Of a DNA stretch of 64,000 nucleotides, positions 13,441 to 24,115 are shown piece by piece; positions within the stretch are counted from its first letter, which is position 1; every line of letters begins with the position of its first letter. The notes under the pieces were generated by a model. That model did no database searches, had not been told where the DNA came from, and saw only the letters and a list, made by a program, of their open reading frames with translations. Origin of the DNA: Escherichia phage vB_Eco_slurp01; sequence record LT603033; one strand, written 5' to 3'. A program made the translations under genes and the position numbers.

Positions 13441-14060
13441 ATTTTATTTTGTTTTTCCAATAGTTCCCCTACCGCGTGGGGATAGTTTCCCCGCAGTATC
13501 TGGAGTTAGATTTTTCTGAATCTGGAATCATTATCTTATAAACTGGGGGCAATGTCAACGACCTGGACGGATATTTTTAAAAATTTTTTCAGTACTGAAT
13601 TTTGGGCGTAACTATGCACCCGGTGGGCTTGAGTCTTTCTCGACTTGATGGAACTATTATACAGTACTGGAAAAATAAAGCAATACCCTGGATGAAAAAA
13701 GTTTTAATTAATTTGCTTGCCATCCTGGGCCGGACTATGGTACTATAATTCAGTACTGAGAAAGTGCGTTAACCTGCTAGGGTGCGGGAGTGTATCCTTT
13801 TTTTATATCTTGAATTTTGGACGGATCTTCCCACCCCCTGGGGTATCCGCTTTCTCGCGTCTATGTAGTAATTATACGCTTTTTCAGGATCAAGTCAATA
13901 CCTAAAAACAAAATAATTGAAAATAATTTAACGCGTTTAAACGGCCCGTAAAGCCCTGGAATGATTGGAATGGTGCAAATGTATAGCTTGGGTGTATTAA
14001 TGCGTTAGAATGCGTCTGAGGCCGTTTTACGGGGTGTAGTAGTGATTTGGTGGATTGATT

Positions 14061-14215
14061 CAGTACTGAATAATAGTACTCCTATATAGAAAGATAGTTC
14101 CCCTGGATGGTTGCAGTACTGAATAATAGTACTCCTATATAGAAAGATAGTTCCCCTGGATGGTTGCAGTACTGAATAATAGTTCCCCTATATAGAAAGA
14201 AAACTATTTTAAAAG
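14061..14215. repeat. Tandem direct repeat, 53-bp unit x ~3, immediately upstream of first early promoter
   Basis: CAGTACTGAATAATAGTACTCCTATATAGAAAGATAGTTCCCCTGGATGGTTG repeated. Confidence 0.85.
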
Positions 14216-14231
14216 TATTTGTAGAAAGTAC

Positions 14232-14259
14232 TTGCAAACTATGTTTAACGGCGTATAAT
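14232..14259 (+). promoter_or_regulatory. Early promoter, sigma70-like
   Basis: TTGCAA N16 TATAAT. Confidence 0.7.
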
Positions 14260-14272
14260 GTTTTACATCGAG

Positions 14273-14291
14273 AGCGGGAACACTTCCCGCT
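14273..14291 (+). other. Promoter-proximal hairpin (AGCGGGAA-CAC-TTCCCGCT)
   Basis: 8-bp stem immediately downstream of predicted start site; member of the recurrent hairpin class. Confidence 0.6.
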
Positions 14292-14314
14292 ACATATTAC
14301 GAGAGATTAAAACG

Positions 14315-14677
14315 ATGGCGACTCAAATCACTAAAATTATTGCTAACCTGGTTAACTTTCGCGACGAGATGAAAGATCTTCCGGCAGAAACGGTAAAAAT
14401 TCACATTGCAGCTTATCGGGAACTTATTGCAATGTTACCTCTTAAGCGTGAACAATACGCCGCTACCGTGATGCTTGATGCGATGATCCATAAGATGATC
14501 GCCAGTGATTTAACGATGGTTTATCAGTATATGGGCGAAAATTTCGCGGTGTATAGTAAACCAGTACCAGGAATGGAAAGTACAGAAGTATTACACGGTT
14601 TAAATTTAAAACAAGATGCATGGGATAATATGCCTCGTTTCCTGGTATGGGCTGACAGTGGCAAAATTTACGAATAA
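14315..14677 (+). CDS. Hypothetical early protein (120 aa)
   Basis: ORF 14258..14677 trimmed: upstream ATG lies inside the -10 element; GAGAGA RBS before MATQITK. Confidence 0.7.
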   Translation: MATQITKIIANLVNFRDEMKDLPAETVKIHIAAYRELIAMLPLKREQYAATVMLDAMIHKMIASDLTMVYQYMGENFAVYSKPVPGMESTEVLHGLNLKQDAWDNMPRFLVWADSGKIYE

Positions 14678-14691
14678 GTTTAATAAAGTAC

Positions 14692-14719
14692 TTGCAAACT
14701 ATGTTTAATGGCGTATAAT
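14692..14719 (+). promoter_or_regulatory. Early promoter
   Basis: TTGCAA N16 TATAAT; hairpin GTGGGGAA-TAG-TTCCCCAC at 14732-14750. Confidence 0.7.
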
Positions 14720-14770
14720 GTTTTACATCAGGTGGGGAATAGTTCCCCACTATATAAGAGGATTAAAAAA

Positions 14771-15010
14771 ATGGCTAAATCAAAAATGTTCTTAGGTCAC
14801 AAAAACAAAACTCATTGGAATGTAAGCCTTTGGATTAATAACGATGAATCATTATACCGGTTGGCCCTGGACTTTATTGCCGCCAATACTAATCGCAATG
14901 ATGCGGCCCGTCATATGATGTTATTTTTAGAACAGACTGGACAAGATAAAACACCGGACGGATTCAAATATAGCACTACTGCGATCCGTGCGGCAATGGT
15001 TGGAATGTAA
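14771..15010 (+). CDS. Hypothetical early protein (79 aa)
   Basis: ORF 14708..15010 trimmed to ATG after AAGAGGA RBS. Confidence 0.7.
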   Translation: MAKSKMFLGHKNKTHWNVSLWINNDESLYRLALDFIAANTNRNDAARHMMLFLEQTGQDKTPDGFKYSTTAIRAAMVGM

Positions 15011-15032
15011 TAGAATAGAATTTATTTAAAGT

Positions 15033-15061
15033 ACTATTGCACGGGGATAGTACTTTATAAT
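15033..15061 (+). promoter_or_regulatory. Degenerate early promoter (TATAAT present, -35 region shortened)
   Basis: Aligns with the promoter at 26483-26511 but has a deletion in the spacer. Confidence 0.4.
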
Positions 15062-15098
15062 AGTGTTTTATTCATACACCAACGATAAGGGCAACAGC

Positions 15099-15365
15099 AT
15101 GAATATTAAGTATTTTGCGACGCGTGAACAAGCTCGGATCGCCGCACGCCAGGACGGGGCAACGTTTAAAGATATGGGCGTACAATCGGAACGTGGTAAA
15201 CGTTGGGCCATTGTAAAGCGTAGTACCGCCAGATCATTACAGTACTGGTTAGCGGCCTTAAAAAGACCCGATAGTGTATCGCGACGAGTGGTAGAAATAA
15301 AGCTCGACCGAAAGGGCAACCGCGTGACCGTGTACCGTACTAAAAAGATTGCAGTACTTGAATAA
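15099..15365 (+). CDS. Hypothetical early protein (88 aa); paralog of 26556..26951
   Basis: Trimmed ORF; shared KYFATREQARIAAR...FKDMG...RKGNRVTVY. Confidence 0.7.
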   Translation: MNIKYFATREQARIAARQDGATFKDMGVQSERGKRWAIVKRSTARSLQYWLAALKRPDSVSRRVVEIKLDRKGNRVTVYRTKKIAVLE

Positions 15366-15373
15366 AAAGTACT

Positions 15374-15400
15374 TGCAAACTATGTTTAAAGGCGTATAAT
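15374..15400 (+). promoter_or_regulatory. Early promoter
   Basis: TTGCAA N15 TATAAT; hairpin GCGGGAA-CTC-TTCCCGC at 15415-15431. Confidence 0.7.
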
Positions 15401-15452
15401 GTTTTACATCGAGAGCGGGAACTCTTCCCGCCTATAACCTGGAGTAATAAAA

Positions 15453-15683
15453 ATGACTAATATGTATATGACTGAAGTTAAAACCGTAAAAGATACTACC
15501 ACGAATAAAACTACTTACTTACAGCGGATCTGTGGTGTATGGCAACGTATCAGCAAATCAAAGTACTTTAAATTAACATCATATGCAAACCGTTCGGATT
15601 CATTCAGTACTGAAATAAAAGGTAATAAAGTACACCAATACGGCACTTATTATTATTATAGCCTGGACGCGATTGCAGTATAA
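15453..15683 (+). CDS. Hypothetical early protein (76 aa)
   Basis: ORF track; GGAG RBS. Confidence 0.65.
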   Translation: MTNMYMTEVKTVKDTTTNKTTYLQRICGVWQRISKSKYFKLTSYANRSDSFSTEIKGNKVHQYGTYYYYSLDAIAV

Positions 15684-15713
15684 GCAGTTTACAAATCTTT
15701 ACAATTGCCGGTA

Positions 15714-15742
15714 TTGACTTATTTTGTCAGTACTGGCATAAT
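15714..15742 (+). promoter_or_regulatory. Promoter driving a non-coding stretch
   Basis: TTGACT N17 CATAAT; no ORF over 25 aa follows. Confidence 0.5.
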
Positions 15743-15744
15743 GT

Positions 15745-15925
15745 ATTCATTGGCAGATAAGCCGTAGCCCATAGGGTGCGGGAGTGTATCTATAGAAAAA
15801 GTAGTTTATTACAGTTACAATTGTGCACCCGGTGGGTTAGCTGTTGTCATGGGGTATATTATGCCAGTACTGGATAGTGCTGTCAATACCTTTTTACTAT
15901 TCAGTACTGAAAACTATTTTTAAAA
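15745..15925 (+). ncRNA. Candidate small non-coding RNA
   Basis: Promoter-driven, no ORF; contains inverted copies of the CCCAYNGGGTGC motif that could pair. Confidence 0.3.
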
Positions 15926-15930
15926 AGTAC

Positions 15931-15958
15931 TTGCAAACTATGTTTAAAGGCGTATAAT
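15931..15958 (+). promoter_or_regulatory. Early promoter (upstream member of a tandem pair)
   Basis: TTGCAA N16 TATAAT. Confidence 0.7.
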
Positions 15959-15965
15959 GTTTTAC

Positions 15966-16040
15966 ATCAGGACGGGGAACGAAATAAGTAACTCCCCATT
16001 AAGTAGCCCAGGAGTAAGGCACACGAAAAACTCCCCTGAT
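15966..16040 (+). other. Conserved ~75-nt structured leader element (copy 1 of 3)
   Basis: ATCAGG...CCTGAT closing helix plus internal GGGGA/TCCCC stem-loop; near-identical copy at 25361-25433, related copy at 18275-18385. Confidence 0.5.
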
Positions 16041-16047
16041 AAAATAG

Positions 16048-16076
16048 TTTGAAAATTGTTTTTAAAAGCGTATAAT
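16048..16076 (+). promoter_or_regulatory. Second promoter of tandem pair
   Basis: TTTGAA N17 TATAAT. Confidence 0.5.
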
Positions 16077-16108
16077 ACTTACATCAACTACTGAATGAGG
16101 GTTACAAA

Positions 16109-16720
16109 ATGAAAACTATCACTACTACTACTTTCGTTATGGATTTTTCTGAATTGAACGCAGAACAAAAAACGTCAGCTATCGAACTGGTTCGGGAACG
16201 TGAAAAAAACTCAAACGACAATTATTTTTCTGAAAGTGAAATTGAATACTATAAAGAAACAGTACTACCGGAATATGGCATTAATGACGCTGAAATACAA
16301 TTCAGTGGTTTTTGGTCCCAGGGTGACGGTGCATCAATCAGTACTGACCACGTTGACGCAGTGAAGTTTTTACGCAAGGTAAGAGCATTAACTAAGTATC
16401 GCTCAATCCGTCACCTGCTGAATGAAGATGATTTGGCGATGAGTGTAAAGCGTTCTCACTCTCACTACTCGCATGAGAACACTGTAAGCGGGTACATTGA
16501 ATCGGCTTACACTGATTTAACCGCAAAACAAGAAACGTTAGTTAATGAGCTTGAGGAACTACTCACTGAAACTATTCGTGAATTGTCACGCAAGTTGTAC
16601 CGTGATTTAGAGAATGCATATGAGGATCAATTCACTACTGAAAACATCGTAGCACTGATTGAGGGTAACGAGTATCAATTCAATGTTATTGATGGCGTAG
16701 TAGAATCAATCGAATATTAA
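16109..16720 (+). CDS. Hypothetical acidic protein (203 aa)
   Basis: ORF track; GAGGG RBS. Confidence 0.75.
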   Translation: MKTITTTTFVMDFSELNAEQKTSAIELVREREKNSNDNYFSESEIEYYKETVLPEYGINDAEIQFSGFWSQGDGASISTDHVDAVKFLRKVRALTKYRSIRHLLNEDDLAMSVKRSHSHYSHENTVSGYIESAYTDLTAKQETLVNELEELLTETIRELSRKLYRDLENAYEDQFTTENIVALIEGNEYQFNVIDGVVESIEY

Positions 16721-16732
16721 TTCAAAAAGTAC

Positions 16733-16760
16733 TGGACACTAAGCAATAAAGGCGTATAAT
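16733..16760 (+). promoter_or_regulatory. Early promoter
   Basis: TGGACA N16 TATAAT; hairpin AGCGGGAA-TAG-TTCCCGCT at 16774-16792. Confidence 0.6.
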
Positions 16761-16812
16761 ACTTTATATCGAGAGCGGGAATAGTTCCCGCTACTAATGA
16801 GGAATACTACAA

Positions 16813-16977
16813 ATGAATACTTTTACCTTCGCTCAATTGAACGCCCTGGATGTATTGTCTGATGCTTTGCGGGATGCAACTGAAAGCGGTTTATTTGACA
16901 ATGTTGACATTCACCCTGATGTAATTAATAATTTTTGTGATGCTATCGCAGAAGTACTGGAAGATCTAAAAAAATAA
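16813..16977 (+). CDS. Hypothetical small protein (54 aa, below ORF-track cutoff)
   Basis: Own translation MNTFTFAQLNALDVLSDALRDATESGLFDN...; GAGGAA RBS; promoter upstream. Confidence 0.5.
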   Translation: MNTFTFAQLNALDVLSDALRDATESGLFDNVDIHPDVINNFCDAIAEVLEDLKK

Positions 16978-16987
16978 TAGAAAGTAC

Positions 16988-17015
16988 TTGCAATTAGTTT
17001 TTAGTACTGTATAAT
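16988..17015 (+). promoter_or_regulatory. Early promoter
   Basis: TTGCAA N16 TATAAT; hairpin 17028-17047. Confidence 0.7.
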
Positions 17016-17065
17016 AGTTTACATAGAGGGGAGAAATGGTTCTCCCTGGTAATGAGGAAAATAAA

Positions 17066-17287
17066 ATGGCTAATATCACTACTCTTTCTCAACTGGAAGC
17101 ACTGGTTAAATCTATGCGGGAACATGCAGACAATATCGGCGTAAAAGATCCAGCCGTTTGCTTCTGCGACGAAATGAATGATGATACACTGGTAATAGCA
17201 GAAGTACAAGATATTTCTAACTATTCATCGCGTTACACTGGCGGCGTAGCAAATAAAGGTGACTTCTGTTTATACCTTACCAAATAA
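17066..17287 (+). CDS. Hypothetical early protein (73 aa)
   Basis: ORF 17036..17287 trimmed to MANITTLS after GAGGAAAA RBS. Confidence 0.65.
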   Translation: MANITTLSQLEALVKSMREHADNIGVKDPAVCFCDEMNDDTLVIAEVQDISNYSSRYTGGVANKGDFCLYLTK

Positions 17288-17292
17288 CAACG

Positions 17293-17322
17293 CGGGGAGA
17301 TAATAACTCCCCGTTACTTTTT
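17293..17322 (+). terminator. Intrinsic terminator
   Basis: CGGGGAG-ATAATAA-CTCCCCG then TTACTTTTTC. Confidence 0.7.
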
Positions 17323-17455
17323 CAGTACTGAATCATTTAATAGACGGATCTCGGCACCCTGTGGGTTAGTGACTGTATCGTCTTTATGTAGTAATTATGC
17401 CAGTACTGGATGCACTTGTCAACAACTATTTTTCAAATACTTTTTATTAAAATAC

Positions 17456-17483
17456 TTGCTAATAGTTTTTAAACGCGTATAAT
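17456..17483 (+). promoter_or_regulatory. Early promoter
   Basis: TTGCTA N16 TATAAT; hairpin GGGGAG-CGG-TTCCCC at 17494-17508. Confidence 0.6.
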
Positions 17484-17529
17484 GTTTTGCATAGGGGAGC
17501 GGTTCCCCTGGTAACTAAGGAATAAGAAA

Positions 17530-17766
17530 ATGCTTGAACAAATCAAATCAACGTCTGCTAATGTAACGGGAACGGTATCACACTTTATTGGTGATGAATC
17601 GCGGGGCGTTCCCTATTGTGCTGTACATGTAAACACTGAGGGTAACTACTGGTTTACGGTTTACGGATCATATTCATTTGGACGGCCAGGGCATCAAAAA
17701 ATTCTGGATAAAGTACAACCAACGGGTAAAAATATCACTGCCGAAATGTTTTATAAAAAATCATAA
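17530..17766 (+). CDS. Hypothetical early protein (78 aa)
   Basis: ORF track; TAAGGAATAAG RBS. Confidence 0.7.
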   Translation: MLEQIKSTSANVTGTVSHFIGDESRGVPYCAVHVNTEGNYWFTVYGSYSFGRPGHQKILDKVQPTGKNITAEMFYKKS

Positions 17767-17771
17767 AGTAC

Positions 17772-17799
17772 TTGATAATAGTTTTTAGTACTGTACAAT
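17772..17799 (+). promoter_or_regulatory. Early promoter
   Basis: TTGATA N16 TACAAT; hairpin GGGGGAG-CGG-TTCCCCC at 17814-17830. Confidence 0.6.
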
Positions 17800-17850
17800 A
17801 TTTTACATCGCACGGGGGAGCGGTTCCCCCTGGTAACTAAGGATAATCAA

Positions 17851-18150
17851 ATGAAAATTGCAATCATCGCCCTGGCTTTATCTGTTTCCTCTTTCGCTGT
17901 TAACGCGTCGTTAGATGTACCTAGTGAAAAATTCATTCAGTGTACTGTTGCGATGACAGATGAAAGTACTGGCGAGATTGTTTTAAAGGATTTAGAGATC
18001 CAGTCAGAAGCATTTAAAAGCGGCCCGTTCCATGAAGAAGACGAAAAAGGTAGCACGACAATTTATTACGATGTAAGTACTAAGCGTGGATCGGTCACGG
18101 TTATGGATACTGAGAAAGTAACGCACACCGGAGTAATTAACTGTTTATAA
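17851..18150 (+). CDS. Putative secreted/periplasmic small protein (99 aa)
   Basis: N-terminus MKIAIIALALSVSSFAVNA|S has signal-peptide character (basic n-region, hydrophobic core, AxA site). Confidence 0.7.
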   Translation: MKIAIIALALSVSSFAVNASLDVPSEKFIQCTVAMTDESTGEIVLKDLEIQSEAFKSGPFHEEDEKGSTTIYYDVSTKRGSVTVMDTEKVTHTGVINCL

Positions 18151-18167
18151 TATAGTACTGAATCACT

Positions 18168-18196
18168 AGCCCACCTTAAACAGTGGGCTTTTTTGT
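18168..18196 (+). terminator. Intrinsic terminator
   Basis: AGCCCAC-CTTAAACA-GTGGGCT + TTTTTT; identical copy at 18894. Confidence 0.8.
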
Positions 18197-18238
18197 TTTG
18201 TAGTACTGCATACTTTAAAAATAGTTTTAAAAAAGTAG

Positions 18239-18266
18239 TTGACATTACCACAAAAAGGCGTAGAAT
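18239..18266 (+). promoter_or_regulatory. Early promoter with long structured leader
   Basis: TTGACA N16 TAGAAT; ~110-nt leader 18275-18385 related to 15966 element. Confidence 0.65.
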
Positions 18267-18389
18267 GTATTACATCAAGACGGGGAGCACTAAGTAGACC
18301 GCCAGTAAGTCGAACGAAAAACTGGACACGTCGATAAAACTTTGATACACTAATAAACGTAAACTAAACTTTAATTGAGGATTTATAAA

Positions 18390-18872
18390 ATGGCTAATGT
18401 AAAATCATTCCTGAAAGCACTGATTTCAAACGATACTGTTATTGCTGCTGAATTGCTGGCTGAACTGGATAACGATACAATGAAAGCGGTACGCAACAAT
18501 TTTAACATTGCGTACAGTGAAGCTAAAGAACTGCAAGCCAAAAAGGTAGCAGAACTGGAAGAACAGAAAAAAGCCCGTGAAGCAGAACTACAAGCAACAA
18601 TTGAAAGTATTCAGGCGGCAGTGTCTGGATTGGATCTGGAAGTGGTTGTAGAAATGGCACATAAAGCCCTGGCGGTTAAGTACGGTGAAGATAAGCCGGA
18701 ATCTAAACCTAAAAAATGGATTCAAGAACGTGTTACTGTAGTACTTGATAACGGTGAAGAACATTTGATTCCTGTACGCGGTAACTGCATTGCGGTAGTA
18801 CTGGACGCTATCAAAGAAAGCGGTATGACTCGCGAGGAATGGATCGAAGCTCATCGCAAAGTTGAAGCATAA
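18390..18872 (+). CDS. Hypothetical protein with predicted coiled-coil N-terminal half (160 aa)
   Basis: ORF 18375..18872 trimmed to MANVKSF after GAGGA RBS. Confidence 0.7.
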   Translation: MANVKSFLKALISNDTVIAAELLAELDNDTMKAVRNNFNIAYSEAKELQAKKVAELEEQKKAREAELQATIESIQAAVSGLDLEVVVEMAHKALAVKYGEDKPESKPKKWIQERVTVVLDNGEEHLIPVRGNCIAVVLDAIKESGMTREEWIEAHRKVEA

Positions 18873-18893
18873 CAATTAAAGTACTGAATCAAT

Positions 18894-18921
18894 AGCCCAC
18901 CTTAAACAGTGGGCTTTTTTG
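18894..18921 (+). terminator. Intrinsic terminator (duplicate of 18168)
   Basis: Same hairpin + T-run. Confidence 0.8.
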
Positions 18922-19074
18922 TGTCTATAGTATTCCAGTCCACTAGCACCGCCTAGAATCGATTCTAACGCATTAAACTGATTATCTGATACATCGCCCT
19001 AGCTGGTGGCGTTAAGGTCGTTAGAAAGCGATTGAGAGTGTTTAAAGTATTTTGCAAAAAGTAATAAAAAGTAC

Positions 19075-19102
19075 TTGCATGATTAAGAGATTAGCGTATA
19101 AT
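19075..19102 (+). promoter_or_regulatory. Early promoter
   Basis: TTGCAT N16 TATAAT; hairpin ~19115-19132. Confidence 0.65.
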
Positions 19103-19156
19103 GTTTTACATCGAAAGGGGAAACGGTTCTCCTTCCAAATCAAAGGAATCAAAACA

Positions 19157-19384
19157 ATGGCTATTATCATTACTCGCGTATCTGGTACTACTGGCAATTC
19201 TTCTACTGTTGCAGTCATTACTAACAAGGCAGGTGCGGAATTGCAAAATGCAATGAATACCTGGGCCGTTAATGAGTTCGGTCAGTGGGCAAGTGTAGCA
19301 TACATTGAAACCTATCAAGTGCCGACCATTAGTTTAACGGATCTTGGTGTGGAACGTATCCTTTGCTTGGATGAATTAAATTAA
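19157..19384 (+). CDS. Hypothetical early protein (75 aa)
   Basis: ORF 19052..19384 trimmed to MAIIITRV after AAAGGAAT RBS. Confidence 0.65.
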   Translation: MAIIITRVSGTTGNSSTVAVITNKAGAELQNAMNTWAVNEFGQWASVAYIETYQVPTISLTDLGVERILCLDELN

Positions 19385-19392
19385 AAAAGTAC

Positions 19393-19420
19393 TTGCAAAG
19401 TAAATCGAATAAAGTATAAT
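19393..19420 (+). promoter_or_regulatory. Early promoter
   Basis: TTGCAA N16 TATAAT; hairpin GGGGAGAA-ATGA-TTCTCCCC at 19433-19452. Confidence 0.7.
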
Positions 19421-19469
19421 ACATTACATCAAGGGGAGAAATGATTCTCCCCACTACAAGGAAACTAAT

Positions 19470-19613
19470 ATGAAAACTTGTCAATGTGGTAAAAAATCTA
19501 TTACTGGTTTAAAGCGGGGCGTTGCTCTTTGCCAGTACCATTATAATTTACAAGTATGGGGTAAAGAATGGGCCGACCAGGTGGAAGCAATTAAGAAAGC
19601 AAAAAGTAAGTAA
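19470..19613 (+). CDS. Small Cys/His-containing protein (47 aa), possible zinc ribbon
   Basis: Own translation MKTCQCGKKSITGLKRGVALCQYHYNLQVWGKEW...; below ORF-track cutoff. Confidence 0.45.
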   Translation: MKTCQCGKKSITGLKRGVALCQYHYNLQVWGKEWADQVEAIKKAKSK

Positions 19614-19632
19614 AAATATTATCACAGTACTA

Positions 19633-19661
19633 TTGACATAGTTTGATAGTACTGGCATAAT
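19633..19661 (+). promoter_or_regulatory. Early promoter (class without downstream hairpin)
   Basis: TTGACA N17 CATAAT. Confidence 0.7.
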
Positions 19662-19702
19662 AGATTTTATCAAGACAACATATTAATTTAAGGAATACTA
19701 AA

Positions 19703-20026
19703 ATGGCTAAAACTATCATTAACACCGTTTCCCTGGCTGCAATCCGTGCAATCAATGTTGACGGTAAACGTTGGACTGATTCATATGGCAATACTTATCA
19801 TTCTTGTCATGTAAGCGTCGAACTGGATAACGGTTTGAATGTTCTGGCGGTTGAATCATTTACTTATGGCTATGAAGATGCATATCAACAAACGGCGTTA
19901 GATCTATTAAAGGAATCAGTAGACGGGCTTAATACTGATGAAACCTCCCTTACTCGTTTGTGCAATGATCTTAATATCCCGTTGCATTGTACTGTACAGA
20001 ATGTTAAACGCAAAAAAGATCTTTAA
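19703..20026 (+). CDS. Hypothetical early protein (107 aa); paralog of 26137..26460
   Basis: ORF track; shared RWTDSxGNTYHSC...FTYGY...VKRKKD. Confidence 0.75.
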   Translation: MAKTIINTVSLAAIRAINVDGKRWTDSYGNTYHSCHVSVELDNGLNVLAVESFTYGYEDAYQQTALDLLKESVDGLNTDETSLTRLCNDLNIPLHCTVQNVKRKKDL

Positions 20027-20106
20027 TTAGCTTTACTTTATGCAGATACTTTGATATAGTGTCTGCATAGGGGAAAGAAATTAAATTAACTTAAGAGGAT
20101 CGTATA

Positions 20107-20376
20107 ATGAAAAATATCAGTACTTTAATCGATGCAGGTACACATGTTCGGCGGTCTATGGTTGCAACCAGTACTACAAAACAAGTAGCAAGCGGTTATC
20201 TTGTATTTGTGCACGATGGTAAACTCCTGGAACGTTCAATCAATTTTGATGTTAAAAACAATTGCCGTTTTATTATCTTTAAGCGTGAACAATATAAAAT
20301 TGATTTGCCAGCGAAGCCCATTAGCGGGGCGTACAACGTGCAATCATTGTTTGAGCGTCAACCATACACCTATTGA
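20107..20376 (+). CDS. Hypothetical protein (89 aa)
   Basis: ORF track; AAGAGGA RBS. Confidence 0.65.
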   Translation: MKNISTLIDAGTHVRRSMVATSTTKQVASGYLVFVHDGKLLERSINFDVKNNCRFIIFKREQYKIDLPAKPISGAYNVQSLFERQPYTY

Positions 20377-20427
20377 TCAAATCATCGTTAGTGGTCGATT
20401 TAGGCCGCTTATATTGGGGATTATACC

Positions 20428-20700
20428 ATGAACGTTAATCAAGTACTAAATGAAGTTGAAAGCATCATTAAACCAATGAAACGTATTGATGCAATGCTAA
20501 CACCGGAAGAATGCCGCCTTTATGAGCGTTACAGCGTCGAACAAGTCCAGGCGATGGCTATGGCTACCCCTGCCGTTAAACAGCCTGAGAATGCGTTACA
20601 GGACGTTACAGGGGATTATATCATTAATCCAGTACTAGGGAAGATTACACCAATCACCGAAGAAGAAAAAGACTACTTAAGCCAGTACTTAAAAGGTTAA
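20428..20700 (+). CDS. Hypothetical protein (90 aa)
   Basis: ORF track. Confidence 0.6.
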   Translation: MNVNQVLNEVESIIKPMKRIDAMLTPEECRLYERYSVEQVQAMAMATPAVKQPENALQDVTGDYIINPVLGKITPITEEEKDYLSQYLKG

Positions 20701-20705
20701 TTAAT

Positions 20706-20915
20706 ATGCTTACTGTACAGGATAAGATCGACATCTTAAAGGTTAATATGTATGTGATTGATGCAGATCCTGAAAAAGTATTTGCATACGATGATTCTAA
20801 TCGTAGTCCTTTTTATTGTAGTCATGTAGTTGGATACGTGCCGTTAGCGTATGTTATCGAAAGAGTGGTTGATTCAGCATACAAACATTTTTTAGAAAAT
20901 AATACTTGCAATTAG
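20706..20915 (+). CDS. Hypothetical protein (69 aa)
   Basis: ORF track; stop lies inside the next promoter. Confidence 0.55.
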   Translation: MLTVQDKIDILKVNMYVIDADPEKVFAYDDSNRSPFYCSHVVGYVPLAYVIERVVDSAYKHFLENNTCN

Positions 20916-20933
20916 TTTTTAGTACTGTATAAT
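20906..20933 (+). promoter_or_regulatory. Early promoter
   Basis: TTGCAA N16 TATAAT; hairpin ~20946-20967. Confidence 0.7.
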
Positions 20934-20984
20934 AGTTTACATGAAGTGGAGAAATAGTTCTCCCCACTAATTAAGGAATATGAA

Positions 20985-21131
20985 ATGAAAGCATCAAAAA
21001 AGAGTACTAATAAGAAAGCACGTTCAACTTTAGATGGGGTATTCCCTTTGCGTTTTGTGGATGAAGTGGTTTCCTACCCGCTGGGGCTTACTCCTGAGAT
21101 GGTAGAAAGTTTACGTAAATCTAAAAAATAA
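20985..21131 (+). CDS. Hypothetical small basic protein (48 aa)
   Basis: Own translation MKASKKSTNKKARSTLDGVFPLRF...; below ORF-track cutoff. Confidence 0.45.
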   Translation: MKASKKSTNKKARSTLDGVFPLRFVDEVVSYPLGLTPEMVESLRKSKK

Positions 21132-21134
21132 TAC

Positions 21135-21162
21135 TTGCAATTAGTTTTTAGTACTGTATAAT
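21135..21162 (+). promoter_or_regulatory. Early promoter
   Basis: TTGCAA N16 TATAAT; hairpin 21175-21194. Confidence 0.7.
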
Positions 21163-21212
21163 AGTTTACATGAAGGGGAGAAATGATTCTCCCCAAGAAC
21201 AGGAGAAATAAA

Positions 21213-21365
21213 ATGAAACAATATAATGCTCGGTTTGATGTTACTATCGGTAACGGTAAAGGTCAATTTTCTTTCAGTACTCGACGCAGTTATACAGAAA
21301 ACTTCCTGCGTAATTGTGCACTGACCGCCGCTCAAATTAAACATTATTTTCAGGCTAAAAAATGA
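21213..21365 (+). CDS. Hypothetical small protein (50 aa)
   Basis: ORF 21183..21365 trimmed to MKQYNARF after AGGAGAAA RBS. Confidence 0.55.
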   Translation: MKQYNARFDVTIGNGKGQFSFSTRRSYTENFLRNCALTAAQIKHYFQAKK

Positions 21366-21451
21366 AATCATTAGCTTATTACAGTTCGGCCCTGGTCGTT
21401 GCATTGATCGCGGCGTTGTTAGTAACCTATCTATTCTTTATGGTGATTTAA
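21362..21451 (+). CDS. Tiny hydrophobic peptide (29 aa), predicted single transmembrane helix
   Basis: Own translation MKSLAYYSSALVVALIAALLVTYLFFMVI; ATGA coupling. Confidence 0.35.
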   Translation: MKSLAYYSSALVVALIAALLVTYLFFMVI

Positions 21452-21589
21452 ATGAATCCTAACGGTATAATTTACAGTACTCCTAAAACGAAAGCAGACA
21501 AGGTAAACGCTAAAAAAGCGAAAGTAAAGGAGTACATCAAGCAAGGCATGACGCGAAAGGCGGCGATTCTAAAAGCTAAAAATAAATGA
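21452..21589 (+). CDS. Small basic protein (45 aa)
   Basis: Own translation MNPNGIIYSTPKTKADKVNAKKAKVKEYIKQGMTRKAAILKAKNK. Confidence 0.4.
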   Translation: MNPNGIIYSTPKTKADKVNAKKAKVKEYIKQGMTRKAAILKAKNK

Positions 21590-21595
21590 AAAAAG

Positions 21596-21720
21596 TGGTT
21601 GACTTCGGTCAGCCATTTTGCTATTATATATTCATTGAGAGATAGCTCACTAGCCCACAGGGTGCAGGAGTGTATCTATTGTATAATGTTTGAGTACTGA
21701 AAACTATTTTTAAAAAAGTA
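21596..21720 (+). repeat. Repeated intergenic module (hairpin overlapping TTGACT-N17-TATTAT promoter + CCCACAGGGTGC motif), copy 1
   Basis: Other copies at 25196-25320, 28463-28600, 30726-30870. Confidence 0.7.
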
Positions 21721-21721
21721 C

Positions 21722-21749
21722 TTGAAAACTATCTCAATTGGCGTATAAT
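21722..21749 (+). promoter_or_regulatory. Early promoter
   Basis: TTGAAA N16 TATAAT; hairpin 21764-21780. Confidence 0.65.
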
Positions 21750-21800
21750 GTTTTACATCGCAAGGGGAAACGGTTTCCCCTGGTAATAAGGAAACGAATC

Positions 21801-22142
21801 ATGACTATCTCAATTGCTCAATCTAACTTTGAAAATGAAATCATCGCCCAGGTACTGCGTTTAAATGATGGTCGGGCCGAAATTAATTACGGTTTCAATT
21901 CAGGCGGTTGTGAAAACTATCAGTACTTTGTAACGGCTGATGGCGGTGTCCTGGGCATCAATACAGTTATTGTAAACATCCAAAAAATTAATTTCAATGA
22001 TCCAGACGATAGCCAGTTTTACATCACTGGCGTAGACGTGAACTATGAGGATGACTCACTAACTGATGATTACACTGGTGAGCGGTTAGAAAGTGCTTAT
22101 GGTGAAGATGATTATCAGTCAGTACCGGAAGATTTCGAATAA
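21801..22142 (+). CDS. Hypothetical early protein (113 aa)
   Basis: ORF 21738..22142 trimmed to MTISIAQ after AAGGAAAC RBS. Confidence 0.7.
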   Translation: MTISIAQSNFENEIIAQVLRLNDGRAEINYGFNSGGCENYQYFVTADGGVLGINTVIVNIQKINFNDPDDSQFYITGVDVNYEDDSLTDDYTGERLESAYGEDDYQSVPEDFE

Positions 22143-22155
22143 TATAAAAAATAGT

Positions 22156-22183
22156 TTGACAATAGATTATAGTACTGTATAAT
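22156..22183 (+). promoter_or_regulatory. Early promoter
   Basis: TTGACA N16 TATAAT; hairpin GGGGAGAA-TAG-TTCTCCCC at 22196-22214. Confidence 0.7.
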
Positions 22184-22234
22184 AGTTTACATCAAGGGGA
22201 GAATAGTTCTCCCCACTAACAGAGAAAAAACAAA

Positions 22235-22447
22235 ATGGCTAATATCCGCACTGTACTGAAAAATGCAAAACAAGTTTTATTTTCTGATCATGATACTTTC
22301 AACAAGGATATTACTGGCGTTCGGAATATCAAAGATGTAAAAAGTGTTATGGGTATCTATTGCAATATGAAACGTGTTGGAACGTTCGGCGACAAAGTAC
22401 TATACCAGGCAGGGGATTACAATTTTACACTGACTATCATTAACTAA
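22235..22447 (+). CDS. Hypothetical early protein (70 aa)
   Basis: ORF track. Confidence 0.7.
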   Translation: MANIRTVLKNAKQVLFSDHDTFNKDITGVRNIKDVKSVMGIYCNMKRVGTFGDKVLYQAGDYNFTLTIIN

Positions 22448-22466
22448 AAATATTATCACAGTACTA

Positions 22467-22495
22467 TTGACATAGTTTGATAGTACTGACATAAT
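22467..22495 (+). promoter_or_regulatory. Early promoter (no-hairpin class)
   Basis: TTGACA N17 CATAAT. Confidence 0.7.
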
Positions 22496-22530
22496 AAGTT
22501 TTATCAACTACACTACTAAGGAATTAAAAA

Positions 22531-22710
22531 ATGGCTATCATCGCAAAAACTGAAATCATCGGCCTGGATTCTATCATCATGACGTTTGAAGATCAAAAAG
22601 GTATGTATGTGGTTTCCTATGGTGATTATGTTCGGGAGTATGAAACGGTAGACGAAGCCTTTGAAAGTTACATTCGCCAGGTGAATAAAGCATACGACGA
22701 CTACCGCTAA
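22531..22710 (+). CDS. Hypothetical small protein (59 aa)
   Basis: Own translation MAIIAKTEIIGLDSIIMTFEDQKG...; AAGGAATT RBS. Confidence 0.5.
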   Translation: MAIIAKTEIIGLDSIIMTFEDQKGMYVVSYGDYVREYETVDEAFESYIRQVNKAYDDYR

Positions 22711-22737
22711 AATATATTACCAGTACTATTAAAGATA

Positions 22738-22765
22738 TTGACAACGTTTGATAGTACTGTATAAT
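22738..22765 (+). promoter_or_regulatory. Early promoter
   Basis: TTGACA N16 TATAAT. Confidence 0.7.
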
Positions 22766-22808
22766 AAGTTTTATCAACAGTAGTTAACTTAACCTAAGAG
22801 AGAAACAA

Positions 22809-22913
22809 AATGATCGCACTGGATTCATTCATCGACGCAGTACTGGCAAAAACTGGCGAGGATCTGACCGCAGAACAATACGCAATGATCGAGCAATGCC
22901 AGCAAGACGGTAA
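22809..22913 (+). CDS. Short ORF (34 aa) with a more protein-like continuation in the +1 frame to 22953; possible frameshifted gene
   Basis: ATG after AAGAGAGA RBS; GGG run at 22859-22861 shifts frame. Confidence 0.3.
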   Translation, partial: NDRTGFIHRRSTGKNWRGSDRRTIRNDRAMPARR

Positions 22914-22959
22914 ATCGGTGAAAGATACTGTTAAGATTATCCGCAAGATGTAAGATTAT

Positions 22960-22990
22960 AGCCCACTGGTTAACGCTGGTGGGCTTTAAT
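22960..22990 (+). terminator. Putative terminator
   Basis: AGCCCAC...GTGGGCT stem then T-rich; stem includes a Chi octamer. Confidence 0.5.
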
Positions 22991-23058
22991 TCATTACCCT
23001 ATACAATGCCAGTACTAAACCGTTTATCTCCTTAGAATGCGTTACAGGACGTTTGACA

Positions 23059-23256
23059 ATGATTAGCATGAAATCAGTACAAAAACAAATAGAAACATTA
23101 TCAAAAATTAAACGTAAACAGTACTCGTTAGAATATACAATCAATGGTAACTATCATCTAATGAAAGAGAATAATTTCATTGTCATTGATGAATCATTGC
23201 AAATCATTAGTATAGTACTGAAAGCATTAATCAATGACAGAAAAAAATTAAAATAA
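23059..23256 (+). CDS. Hypothetical protein (66 aa)
   Basis: ORF track (TTG start at 23053) trimmed to first ATG; no clear promoter. Confidence 0.45.
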   Translation: MISMKSVQKQIETLSKIKRKQYSLEYTINGNYHLMKENNFIVIDESLQIISIVLKALINDRKKLK

Positions 23257-23260
23257 TATA

Positions 23261-23289
23261 TTGACAATATCCTCCAGTACTGGCATAAT
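23261..23289 (+). promoter_or_regulatory. Promoter followed by ~290-bp non-coding leader
   Basis: TTGACA N17 CATAAT. Confidence 0.65.
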
Positions 23290-23587
23290 ACTTACATCAA
23301 GACGAGAACGTCACTAACCCATAGGGTGCACAAATGTAACTGTATAATATTGATCAAAAAATGATCTGATCAATACTTGATCAATTTGCGTAAAGTAGTA
23401 TAATTCTATGCAGTTGGTTAGACGAAAGGTTATGATTAGTAGTGCAAGTGTATAAAAATTTTCATGGTGTATCGTTTCGCACATATGGGGATGAATATGT
23501 GGTATCATGTGGATTGGAAAAAGTAAGAACAAGTAATATTATTGTCGCATTACAGTACTATAGTATTTTTATAATGAGGTTAAAATA
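23290..23587 (+). ncRNA. Candidate non-coding RNA or long leader with clustered TGATCA/GATC
   Basis: No plus-strand ORF; TTGATCAA x3 + GATCTGATCAA within 23340-23395. Confidence 0.3.
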
Positions 23588-23845
23588 ATGGCTGTAGGAT
23601 TCGCGAAAGATGGGGCCGAACAAGACGAGATTAACGCAGTGATTCAGGCCGCCGTTAACCACGCTAGAAAGCAAATTAACGCACAAATAGAATCACTGAT
23701 ACATTGCCTCGACTGCGGCGATATAATCCCTGAGAAACGACGCCAGGCCGTTAAGGGGTGTAAGTACTGCATAACTTGCCAGGAGGATCATGATAGTACT
23801 TTTAAACGTCCCCCGCGTAATTGTTGGCATAGATCTATGAGATAA
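23588..23845 (+). CDS. TraR/DksA-family C4 zinc-finger protein (85 aa)
   Basis: CLDCGDIIPEKRRQAVKGCKYC fits C-x2-C-x3-I-P-x2-R...C-x2-C signature. Confidence 0.6.
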   Translation: MAVGFAKDGAEQDEINAVIQAAVNHARKQINAQIESLIHCLDCGDIIPEKRRQAVKGCKYCITCQEDHDSTFKRPPRNCWHRSMR

Positions 23846-23851
23846 AAAGTA

Positions 23852-23880
23852 TTGACAGTACTATCCAGTAGTGTTATAGT
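23852..23880 (+). promoter_or_regulatory. Early promoter
   Basis: TTGACA N17 TATAGT; hairpin GGGGAA-ACATC-TTCCCC at 23892-23908. Confidence 0.65.
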
Positions 23881-23926
23881 ACTTACATCAAGGGGAAACA
23901 TCTTCCCCTACTAAGAGGAAATGAAA

Positions 23927-24115
23927 ATGGAAAACTTATCAAGTATTTTAGTACAAGATGATTTCGGTAATCCTGGAAGTGCTATCATTGTTCGGGGTAA
24001 TAAAGCAACATTTGTTATTGCTGGTGGACCTGTACAGCGTAGCATTAAAAATAATGCTGTTACCATTAATAATGTACGCTATCGCTTAGATAAAGAATTG
24101 ATTCATAAACTGTAA
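23927..24115 (+). CDS. Hypothetical early protein (62 aa)
   Basis: ORF 23921..24115; second ATG has better RBS spacing. Confidence 0.6.
   Translation: MENLSSILVQDDFGNPGSAIIVRGNKATFVIAGGPVQRSIKNNAVTINNVRYRLDKELIHKL

Follow-up and report, generated by a model that had tools for sequence, protein, structure and literature searches.

A predicted periplasmic all-beta protein family of jumbo coliphages and enterobacterial prophages

What would a large lytic coliphage gain from a short gene whose product appears to leave the cytoplasm? The question is raised by an open reading frame of Escherichia phage vB_Eco_slurp01 (LT603033), which lies in the 64-kb stretch of DNA analysed here (the window). 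The frame occupies exactly 17851–18150 on the + strand, starts with ATG, includes its stop codon and encodes 99 amino acids. The protein reads MKIAIIALALSVSSFAVNA followed by SLDVPSEKFIQCTVAMTDESTGEIVLKDLEIQSEAFKSGPFHEEDEKGSTTIYYDVSTKRGSVTVMDTEKVTHTGVINCL, the predicted cleavage site separating the two parts. The next in-frame methionine (M35) lacks a Shine-Dalgarno site, and thus the N-terminal leader should be translated.

The DNA around the gene is 97–98% identical over one kilobase to Escherichia phages PBECO4 and JP4. The phage is therefore a PBECO4/121Q-type (Asteriusvirus) jumbo myovirus with a genome of roughly 350 kb, and is not T5-like. An orthologue was found in all 36 matching phage records of this type, and the entire protein matches phrog_31669, a family without an assigned function (E = 3e-61, residues 1–99 against positions 1–99 of a 99-position profile). 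The coding frame is under purifying selection, as dN/dS (Nei-Gojobori, eight orthologues) lies between 0.05 and 0.24 in all informative pairs, i.e., those with enough divergence; against 121Q and EJP2, dS saturates. Proteins engaged in an arms race often show diversifying selection, of which these low values give no hint, and this counts against the function proposed below. Together, the data strongly support that 17851–18150 is a genuine conserved gene of a PBECO4/121Q-like jumbo coliphage.

At the nucleotide level, the 57 nt that encode the leader (17851–17907) are almost invariant among orthologues. Compared with 121Q there are two nucleotide differences in the leader while the mature part is ~30% divergent, and the leader has Sd = 1 where the mature part has a dS of ~2. 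This invariance could reflect a constraint on the mRNA, a constraint on translation initiation or a recombination boundary.

Table 1. Features of the gene and of its flanking transcription signals in the window.
Feature	Coordinates	Strand	Evidence or remarks
Sigma-70-type promoter TTGATA-16 nt-TACAAT, with an A/T-rich stretch 5' of it	17772..17799	+	sequence; repeat families D1, D2, D4
5'-UTR GC hairpin GGGGGA/gcggu/UCCCCC, 6 bp, about -11.8 kcal/mol	17814..17830	+	folding; repeat families D6, D10
Shine-Dalgarno site AAGGA	17839..17843	+	sequence; 7 nt 5' of ATG
Complete CDS including stop	17851..18150	+	phrog_31669 member; dN/dS
Sec signal peptide, aa 1-19 (MKIAIIALALSVSSFAVNA), predicted SPase I cut after Ala19	17851..17907	+	leader anatomy; aa 1-25 pLDDT <50
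Mature 80-aa acidic (net -8) domain, predicted all-beta	17908..18147	+	alignments; AlphaFold2 pLDDT 91.3
Intrinsic terminator AGCCCAC/cuuaaaca/GUGGGCU + U-tract	18168..18197	+	-11.9 kcal/mol, z = -2.26; repeat family D16

The transcription signals are listed in Table 1. The 5'-UTR hairpin leaves both the Shine-Dalgarno site and the AUG unpaired and is a conserved part of a repeated cassette: between 14 and 24 kb there are at least 15 nearly identical copies of the module made up of promoter, hairpin and Shine-Dalgarno site, this one included. A terminator follows the gene, which thus forms a monocistronic unit; the same terminator is annotated in phage G17.

In relatives, the gene is found ~6 kb inside a direct terminal repeat of ~21 kb. 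The orthologue of vB_Ec-M-J is located at 6067–6366, within a direct terminal repeat that spans 1–21525, and that of fEgEco12 at 5284–5583, within a terminal repeat of 20,993 bp that was identified by PhageTerm and confirmed by restriction digests (PMC13070987). The homologue of Klebsiella phage Muenster likewise lies inside the terminal repeat of its genome. RNA-seq of the related phage PA5oct shows that terminal-repeat genes are highly transcribed early (PMC7318152), and in phage CBB, RpoD-like promoters that precede short ORFs and reach into the terminal repeat are suspected to mark early regions (PMC5259590). Given the promoter type, the position in the terminal repeat and the RNA-seq of a distant relative, early expression is likely. 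As the genome is of the PBECO4/121Q type, the word early in the original prediction stands on a sigma-70-type promoter and a terminal-repeat location, and not on a characterised early region.

The surroundings of the gene are of interest in themselves. The array of monocistronic cassettes extends from 14200 to 24000 and contains at least 15 promoter copies. Each cassette is laid out as an A/T-rich stretch, a promoter (AGTACTTGCAA-16-TATAAT), a start region TTTACATC, a GC-rich 5'-UTR hairpin, a Shine-Dalgarno site and a short ORF, often followed by a terminator. The stem sequence of the hairpin differs among copies while its pairing is kept, and the hairpin may stabilise or regulate the mRNA. 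Just 5' of the first promoter cassette there are three tandem 53-nt repeats (14041–14209; 94% and 77% identity to the first copy; repeat families D7 and D8). A 46-nt segment of family D16, present in two copies that are 96% identical (18151–18196 and 18877–18922), ends two consecutive genes; both copies hold the same terminator (AGCCCACCTTAAACAGTGGGCTTTTTTGT), with the identical second terminator at 18894. The gene next after that of the 99-residue protein, starting at about 18390, has a near-consensus promoter (TTGACA-16-TAGAAT, 18239–18266) and an unusually long leader of ~120 nt (18267–18389). Part of this leader (18288–18323) is 78% identical to 15997–16032 (D20), which points to a second type of repeated 5'-UTR.

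The content of the array varies between phages. The upstream cassette (17499–17830), including an ORF of 78 amino acids at 17530–17766, is absent from 121Q and TH47. Unrelated genes lie 3' of the position equivalent to 18150 in EJP2 and TH47, and fEgEco12 and vB_Ec-M-J have an extra ORF of 231 nt at the 3' side of the gene. From these comparisons, recombination between the repeated promoter and hairpin elements seems to add and remove cassettes, but that of the predicted secreted protein is always kept. In the Muenster terminal repeat (locus L013, 3408–4924), a putative YafQ-like ribonuclease toxin and a putative protein kinase are annotated near the homologue, and these annotations suggest that the early region in the terminal repeat is a host-takeover toolbox.

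The original prediction was that the N-terminus, followed by Ser, has signal-peptide character and differs in this from neighbouring early proteins. Both parts agree with what we find. The leader consists of an n-region with a single positive charge (K2), an h-region, IAIIALALSVSSFAV, of 15 uncharged residues with a mean Kyte-Doolittle hydropathy of 2.47, and a c-region V-N-A with small residues at -3 and -1, followed by Ser at +1. There is no lipobox in the protein, and no cysteine in or next to the leader. Signal peptides were called here by our own heuristic criteria on the leader sequence rather than by SignalP. The leader shows the marks of the Sec/SPase I class of secretory proteins: a positive n-region, a hydrophobic h-region of 7–15 residues, small residues at -3 and -1 and no proline at +1. 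Among the 131 ORFs on the + strand of the window that are preceded by a Shine-Dalgarno site, this is the only one with an N-terminal hydrophobic leader, and it is also the clearest match in a crude Sec screen of 258 ATG ORFs.

The same anatomy is found throughout the family. All 22 aligned members keep an n-h-c leader, down to 28–38% identity, even though the leader sequences differ. The V-N-A/S site is conserved, or exchanged for an equivalent site of the A-x-A type, in orthologues and distant relatives. In four of the 22 members, a lipobox (LTGC or LSGC) with the cysteine at position 17 and no Asp at +2 is found instead; these are prophage members and some distant relatives only. In E. coli, a lipoprotein without Asp at +2 is sorted to the outer membrane, and thus the four lipobox members are probably tethered there. 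The number of non-lipidated cysteines is even in every mature family member. Furthermore, the Muenster homologue (CPT_Muenster_039) has independently been annotated as a putative secreted protein from InterPro signal-peptide regions. Since every member carries an export signal, export is a conserved property of the family, whose domain would work either free in the periplasm or tethered.

Two other readings of the N-terminus can be weighed against these observations. In the first, the N-terminus resembles a leader by chance, and the protein stays in the cytoplasm as its neighbours do. Export signals in 22 of 22 members with otherwise unrelated leader sequences, an invariant cysteine pair with an even cysteine count, and the independent InterPro call on the Muenster homologue make this very improbable. 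In the second, the hydrophobic segment stays uncleaved and the protein belongs to the inner membrane, as a type II anchored or a signal-anchor-release protein. The h-region is indeed fairly long, with 15 uncharged residues of which three are Ser, and cleavage is a prediction. However, it is shorter than a typical transmembrane helix, the V-N-A/S site is canonical and is either conserved or replaced by A-x-A-type equivalents, and residues 1–25 are unstructured in the AlphaFold2 model. In addition, the four relatives with SPase II lipoboxes imply that removal of the leader is the norm in the family, and an uncleaved anchor is improbable. Export of the protein to the periplasm is instead highly probable as judged from its sequence and its relatives; with leader anatomy, family-wide export signals and the invariant cysteine pair all pointing the same way, the small secreted or periplasmic protein first proposed for this locus is strongly supported.

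What kind of domain would be delivered to the periplasm? With a shallow alignment of orthologues, AlphaFold2 gives a pLDDT below 50 for residues 1–25 and about 88 for residues 28–99. When the mature domain is modelled with the alignment of 22 sequences, the mean pLDDT is 91.3 and the pTM 0.75. Six beta-strands in up-and-down order and a single helix of four residues make up the model, and an all-beta fold of the mature domain is strongly supported by these predictions. C31, C98 and G94 are invariant across the 22 aligned members, and the two cysteines are predicted to form a disulfide. Two further motifs are strongly conserved in the family, a hairpin (Y)HEED-x-x-GSTT and KG-x-I-x-MD, which in the window protein read HEED-x-x-GSTT and KRG-x-x-T-V-MD.

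Neither fold nor sequence connects this domain to a solved structure. Foldseek searches of the PDB with two models returned nothing at E <= 0.001. The best matches, to LolA, lipocalins and Cap15 (TM <= 0.57), are beta-barrels of a generic kind, open, closed or half, and are uninformative, and against BFVD only members of the family itself are found, all uncharacterised. Searching PDB sequences with the single sequence and with the 22-sequence profile gave no relative, as the match to latexin (E = 0.32) is noise. Nothing significant was obtained for the protein and its distant members in Pfam, NCBIfam and PADLOC, and in Pfam there was no match for the window protein or for 19 family members.

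The family is nevertheless larger than close orthologues suggest. An indexed search returned close orthologues only, while an exhaustive HMM profile search returned 16 representative proteins, including members of 96–149 amino acids at 28–39% identity. Four groups of members can be recognised. Asteriusvirus-type phages encode proteins of 99 amino acids. Alcyoneusvirus (Muenster) and other jumbo phages of Klebsiella, Salmonella and Erwinia have versions of about 120–140 amino acids; those of Alcyoneusvirus, Salmonella and Erwinia phages carry an extra N-terminal segment of ~30–40 residues, sometimes with a second cysteine pair. The third group is found in rV5-like phages of about 140 kb (e.g., A73, A5-4, UPEC06 and SSBI34), with 99 amino acids in A73. 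The fourth consists of lipoproteins of 149–153 amino acids in Escherichia, Enterobacter and Citrobacter genomes. In everything examined, members occur only in phages and prophages of Enterobacteriaceae. It is an uncharacterised family, without a detectable homologue or fold match among solved structures, and wider than the databases suggest.

Both chromosomal copies whose context was examined, from E. coli and E. fergusonii, lie in prophages, which have a serine recombinase at one end and genes for the small terminase, large terminase, portal and capsid downstream. There, three exported proteins are encoded consecutively: a lipoprotein of 126 amino acids, a Sec protein of 129 amino acids and the homologue, a lipoprotein of 152–153 amino acids (locus L005, 7049–8459; also L006–L010). 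The trio lies upstream of the terminase, and none of its members belongs to a recognised family. No independent promoter of the prophage copy was found in the flanking DNA. No recognisable holin, endolysin or spanin is present in the neighbourhood, where the neighbours are the two other exported proteins and unassigned genes. The trio may be an envelope-acting moron cluster.

One orthologue carries the name of a characterised protein. The fEgEco12 protein g10 (PP777464.1; XBS49092.1; locus L001, 2954–3253) is labelled "protein spackle" in GenBank, although the fEgEco12 paper neither mentions nor justifies this name. Spackle of phage T4 is an early, periplasmic, disulfide-bonded protein of 75 amino acids, and its binding site on the gp5 lysozyme is a basic patch (PMC7677548). 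If the family were truly homologous to Spackle (T4 gp61.3), it would inhibit gp5-type tail lysozymes by the same mechanism. Besides the GenBank product name of XBS49092.1, the gross architecture is alike (PMC7677548): an early gene, a precursor of about 97–99 amino acids with a cleavable Sec leader of ~20 residues, a predicted periplasmic location, and a small acidic mature protein of ~75–80 amino acids with one cysteine pair (C29–C81 in Spackle, C31/C98 here). However, a targeting signal combined with one disulfide, both of them predictions for the window protein, is a generic feature and insufficient for membership.

All direct comparisons with Spackle fail. There is a weak match to the PHROG spackle family (phrog_1586, E = 0.31), but it covers residues 1–43 only. 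BLASTP against T4 Sp gives no alignment at E <= 100. The Pfam family T4_Spackle (PF25676), which is carried by all true Spackle homologues, is not matched at E <= 10. An hhalign comparison of the two family profiles gives a probability of 6.7%, confined to the leader and a few following residues; beyond the leader there is thus no sequence or profile similarity. Finally, the predicted fold is all-beta while Spackle is an alpha-helical bundle (PMC7677548), and Spackle chains are absent from the top 50 Foldseek matches in the PDB. We therefore reject homology to Spackle on the basis of Pfam, PHROG, BLASTP, hhalign and the predicted fold, and that a true Spackle should be hidden here is hardly credible. 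The label "protein spackle" stems from the resemblance of one leader to another, and "secreted protein, unknown function" should replace it.

Two other systems resemble the family without being related to it. Llp of phage T5 is an early lipoprotein that jams FhuA from the periplasmic side (PMC9586334). Llp and Cor are small, early-expressed, exported phage proteins that have an intramolecular disulfide and act from the periplasmic side (PMC9586334). The present protein is predicted to resemble them in these respects, and the prophage relatives of the family are lipoproteins that are probably tethered to the outer membrane. The window protein differs in that it has no lipobox and is predicted to be soluble. 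It matches no Cor or Llp PHROG (phrog_1119) at E <= 1, and the top Foldseek matches do not include the structure of FhuA with Llp (8A60). A Cor PHROG match was obtained for one prophage member (P0044), but it covers residues 1–36, i.e., the leader only, and has the same artefactual origin as the Spackle label; homology to Cor/Llp was rejected.

The second comparison concerns the lysozyme inhibitors Ivy, PliC/MliC, PliG and PliI, which insert a loop between antiparallel strands into their target (summarised in PMC7677548). These are also small, beta-rich periplasmic proteins, both they and the present family include soluble and lipoprotein versions, and the family has a conserved beta-hairpin, HEED-GSTT, to set beside their loop. 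However, the inhibitors are bacterial while the family is found in phages and prophages only. [quoted passage not shown] In summary, no homology or fold match to the characterised exclusion proteins (Spackle, Llp/Cor, Imm) or to lysozyme inhibitors was detected. The closest described entity is the family itself, phrog_31669 with CPT_Muenster_039, whose Muenster copy is also located in a terminal repeat and also annotated as secreted.

From these observations a mechanism can be proposed. The host sigma-70 RNA polymerase would transcribe the gene as its own short mRNA, probably very early in infection. The 99-residue precursor would pass through Sec, signal peptidase I would cut after Ala19 (VNA/S), and the acidic mature protein of 80 residues would adopt a compact beta fold of six strands in the periplasm, stapled by a C31–C98 disulfide. 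There it would stoichiometrically bind or inhibit an envelope component, most likely via the HEED-GSTT beta-hairpin. The target would be a component required by an incoming phage or dangerous to the infected cell, with a tail-associated or free peptidoglycan hydrolase and the periplasmic face of an outer-membrane receptor as candidates. The outcome would be superinfection exclusion or protection from lysis-from-without, so that the protein would be a functional analogue, but not a homologue, of T4 Spackle or T5 Llp, and the prophage relatives would do the same job as lipoproteins tethered to the outer membrane.

The most economical role would be to protect the newly infected cell, because of the probable immediate-early timing, the distribution over phages and prophages, the alternation between soluble and lipoprotein forms, and the precedents of Spackle and Llp. 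With regard to the partner, Asteriusviruses encode a basic (pI 9.19) GH24 lysozyme of the T4 type (PMC12805682), and it is conceivable that the acidic mature protein binds this enzyme; an outer-membrane receptor is another conceivable partner. Taken as a whole, an early, Sec-exported periplasmic beta-domain binder that gives exclusion or envelope protection is our best explanation, and we give it a little less than an even chance. The function in superinfection exclusion or envelope protection, which is argued from analogy, is put forward tentatively, as a possibility that we would sooner doubt than assert. The candidate roles first suggested for the locus, which besides superinfection exclusion were envelope remodelling and receptor masking, are plausible.

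A periplasmic protein of this kind could instead regulate the timing of lysis. Periplasmic antiholins are known from T4 (RI). In this reading, the protein would serve as an antiholin, or otherwise inhibit lysis, by binding the periplasmic domain of the phage holin, and it would have no part in exclusion. Its small size (about 100 amino acids) and its predicted export suit such a role, and the prophage relatives lie shortly before the terminase, separated from it by a few genes, a common place for lysis cassettes. However, no holin or endolysin is recognisable beside any family member, and the gene in the window is probably immediate-early and monocistronic, and its place in the terminal repeat is remote from lysis genes. 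A cleaved leader, rather than a signal-anchor-release domain, is also favoured by the AXA site and the lipobox variants, and the PHROG scan contains no lysis-inhibition family at E <= 1. A role in lysis timing is thus quite unlikely.

It could also be speculated that the protein acts on the host alone, as a factor for envelope takeover or counter-defence that binds a periplasmic or outer-membrane protein of the host (a protease, a stress sensor or a defence effector) and has no effect on other phages. The gene sits in an early region of short genes of the host-takeover type (PMC5259590), and the restriction of the family to phages of Enterobacteriaceae fits a conserved host target. Bacterial defences that act in the periplasm do exist, e.g., the HXS system, which blocks DNA entry (PMC13128918), and their existence adds to this case. 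Against it, the protein has no homology to a known anti-defence or defence protein, and the prophage form, an outer-membrane lipoprotein, fits protection of the lysogen or exclusion at least as well. We regard an effect on the host alone as unlikely, although it deserves more weight than lysis timing.

The preferred reading, a periplasmic binder that protects the infected cell, can be extended to the family as a whole. Small early exported phage proteins are already known as a kind, and the secreted nature of one homologue is already recorded in a GenBank entry. To our knowledge, the exported phage proteins that act in the periplasm by a known mechanism are only a handful: Spackle, Imm and RI of T4, and Llp and Cor of T5. 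It is possible, but rather doubtful, that the family represents a hitherto unrecognised and structurally new class of phage periplasmic "immunity" proteins. Such a class would be defined by a disulfide-stapled, six-stranded beta domain with a HEED-GSTT hairpin, made as soluble immediate-early proteins in jumbo and rV5-like lytic phages and as outer-membrane lipoproteins in prophages, and it would block the entry of competing phages into Enterobacteriaceae in a manner unlike Spackle, Imm and Llp/Cor.

For annotation, the analysis corrects an unsupported public label ("protein spackle", PP777464.1 g10). It also sets out hallmarks of the family, i.e., the leader, C31/C98, HEED-GSTT and KG-x-I-x-MD, by which its members can consistently be annotated as "secreted protein, unknown function". 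For phage biology, a new exported family present in jumbo phages, rV5-like phages and prophages of E. coli, Salmonella, Klebsiella and Erwinia would offer a practicable way to ask how large therapeutic phages protect the envelope of the infected cell and how they exclude competitors. Both questions bear on the design of phage cocktails.
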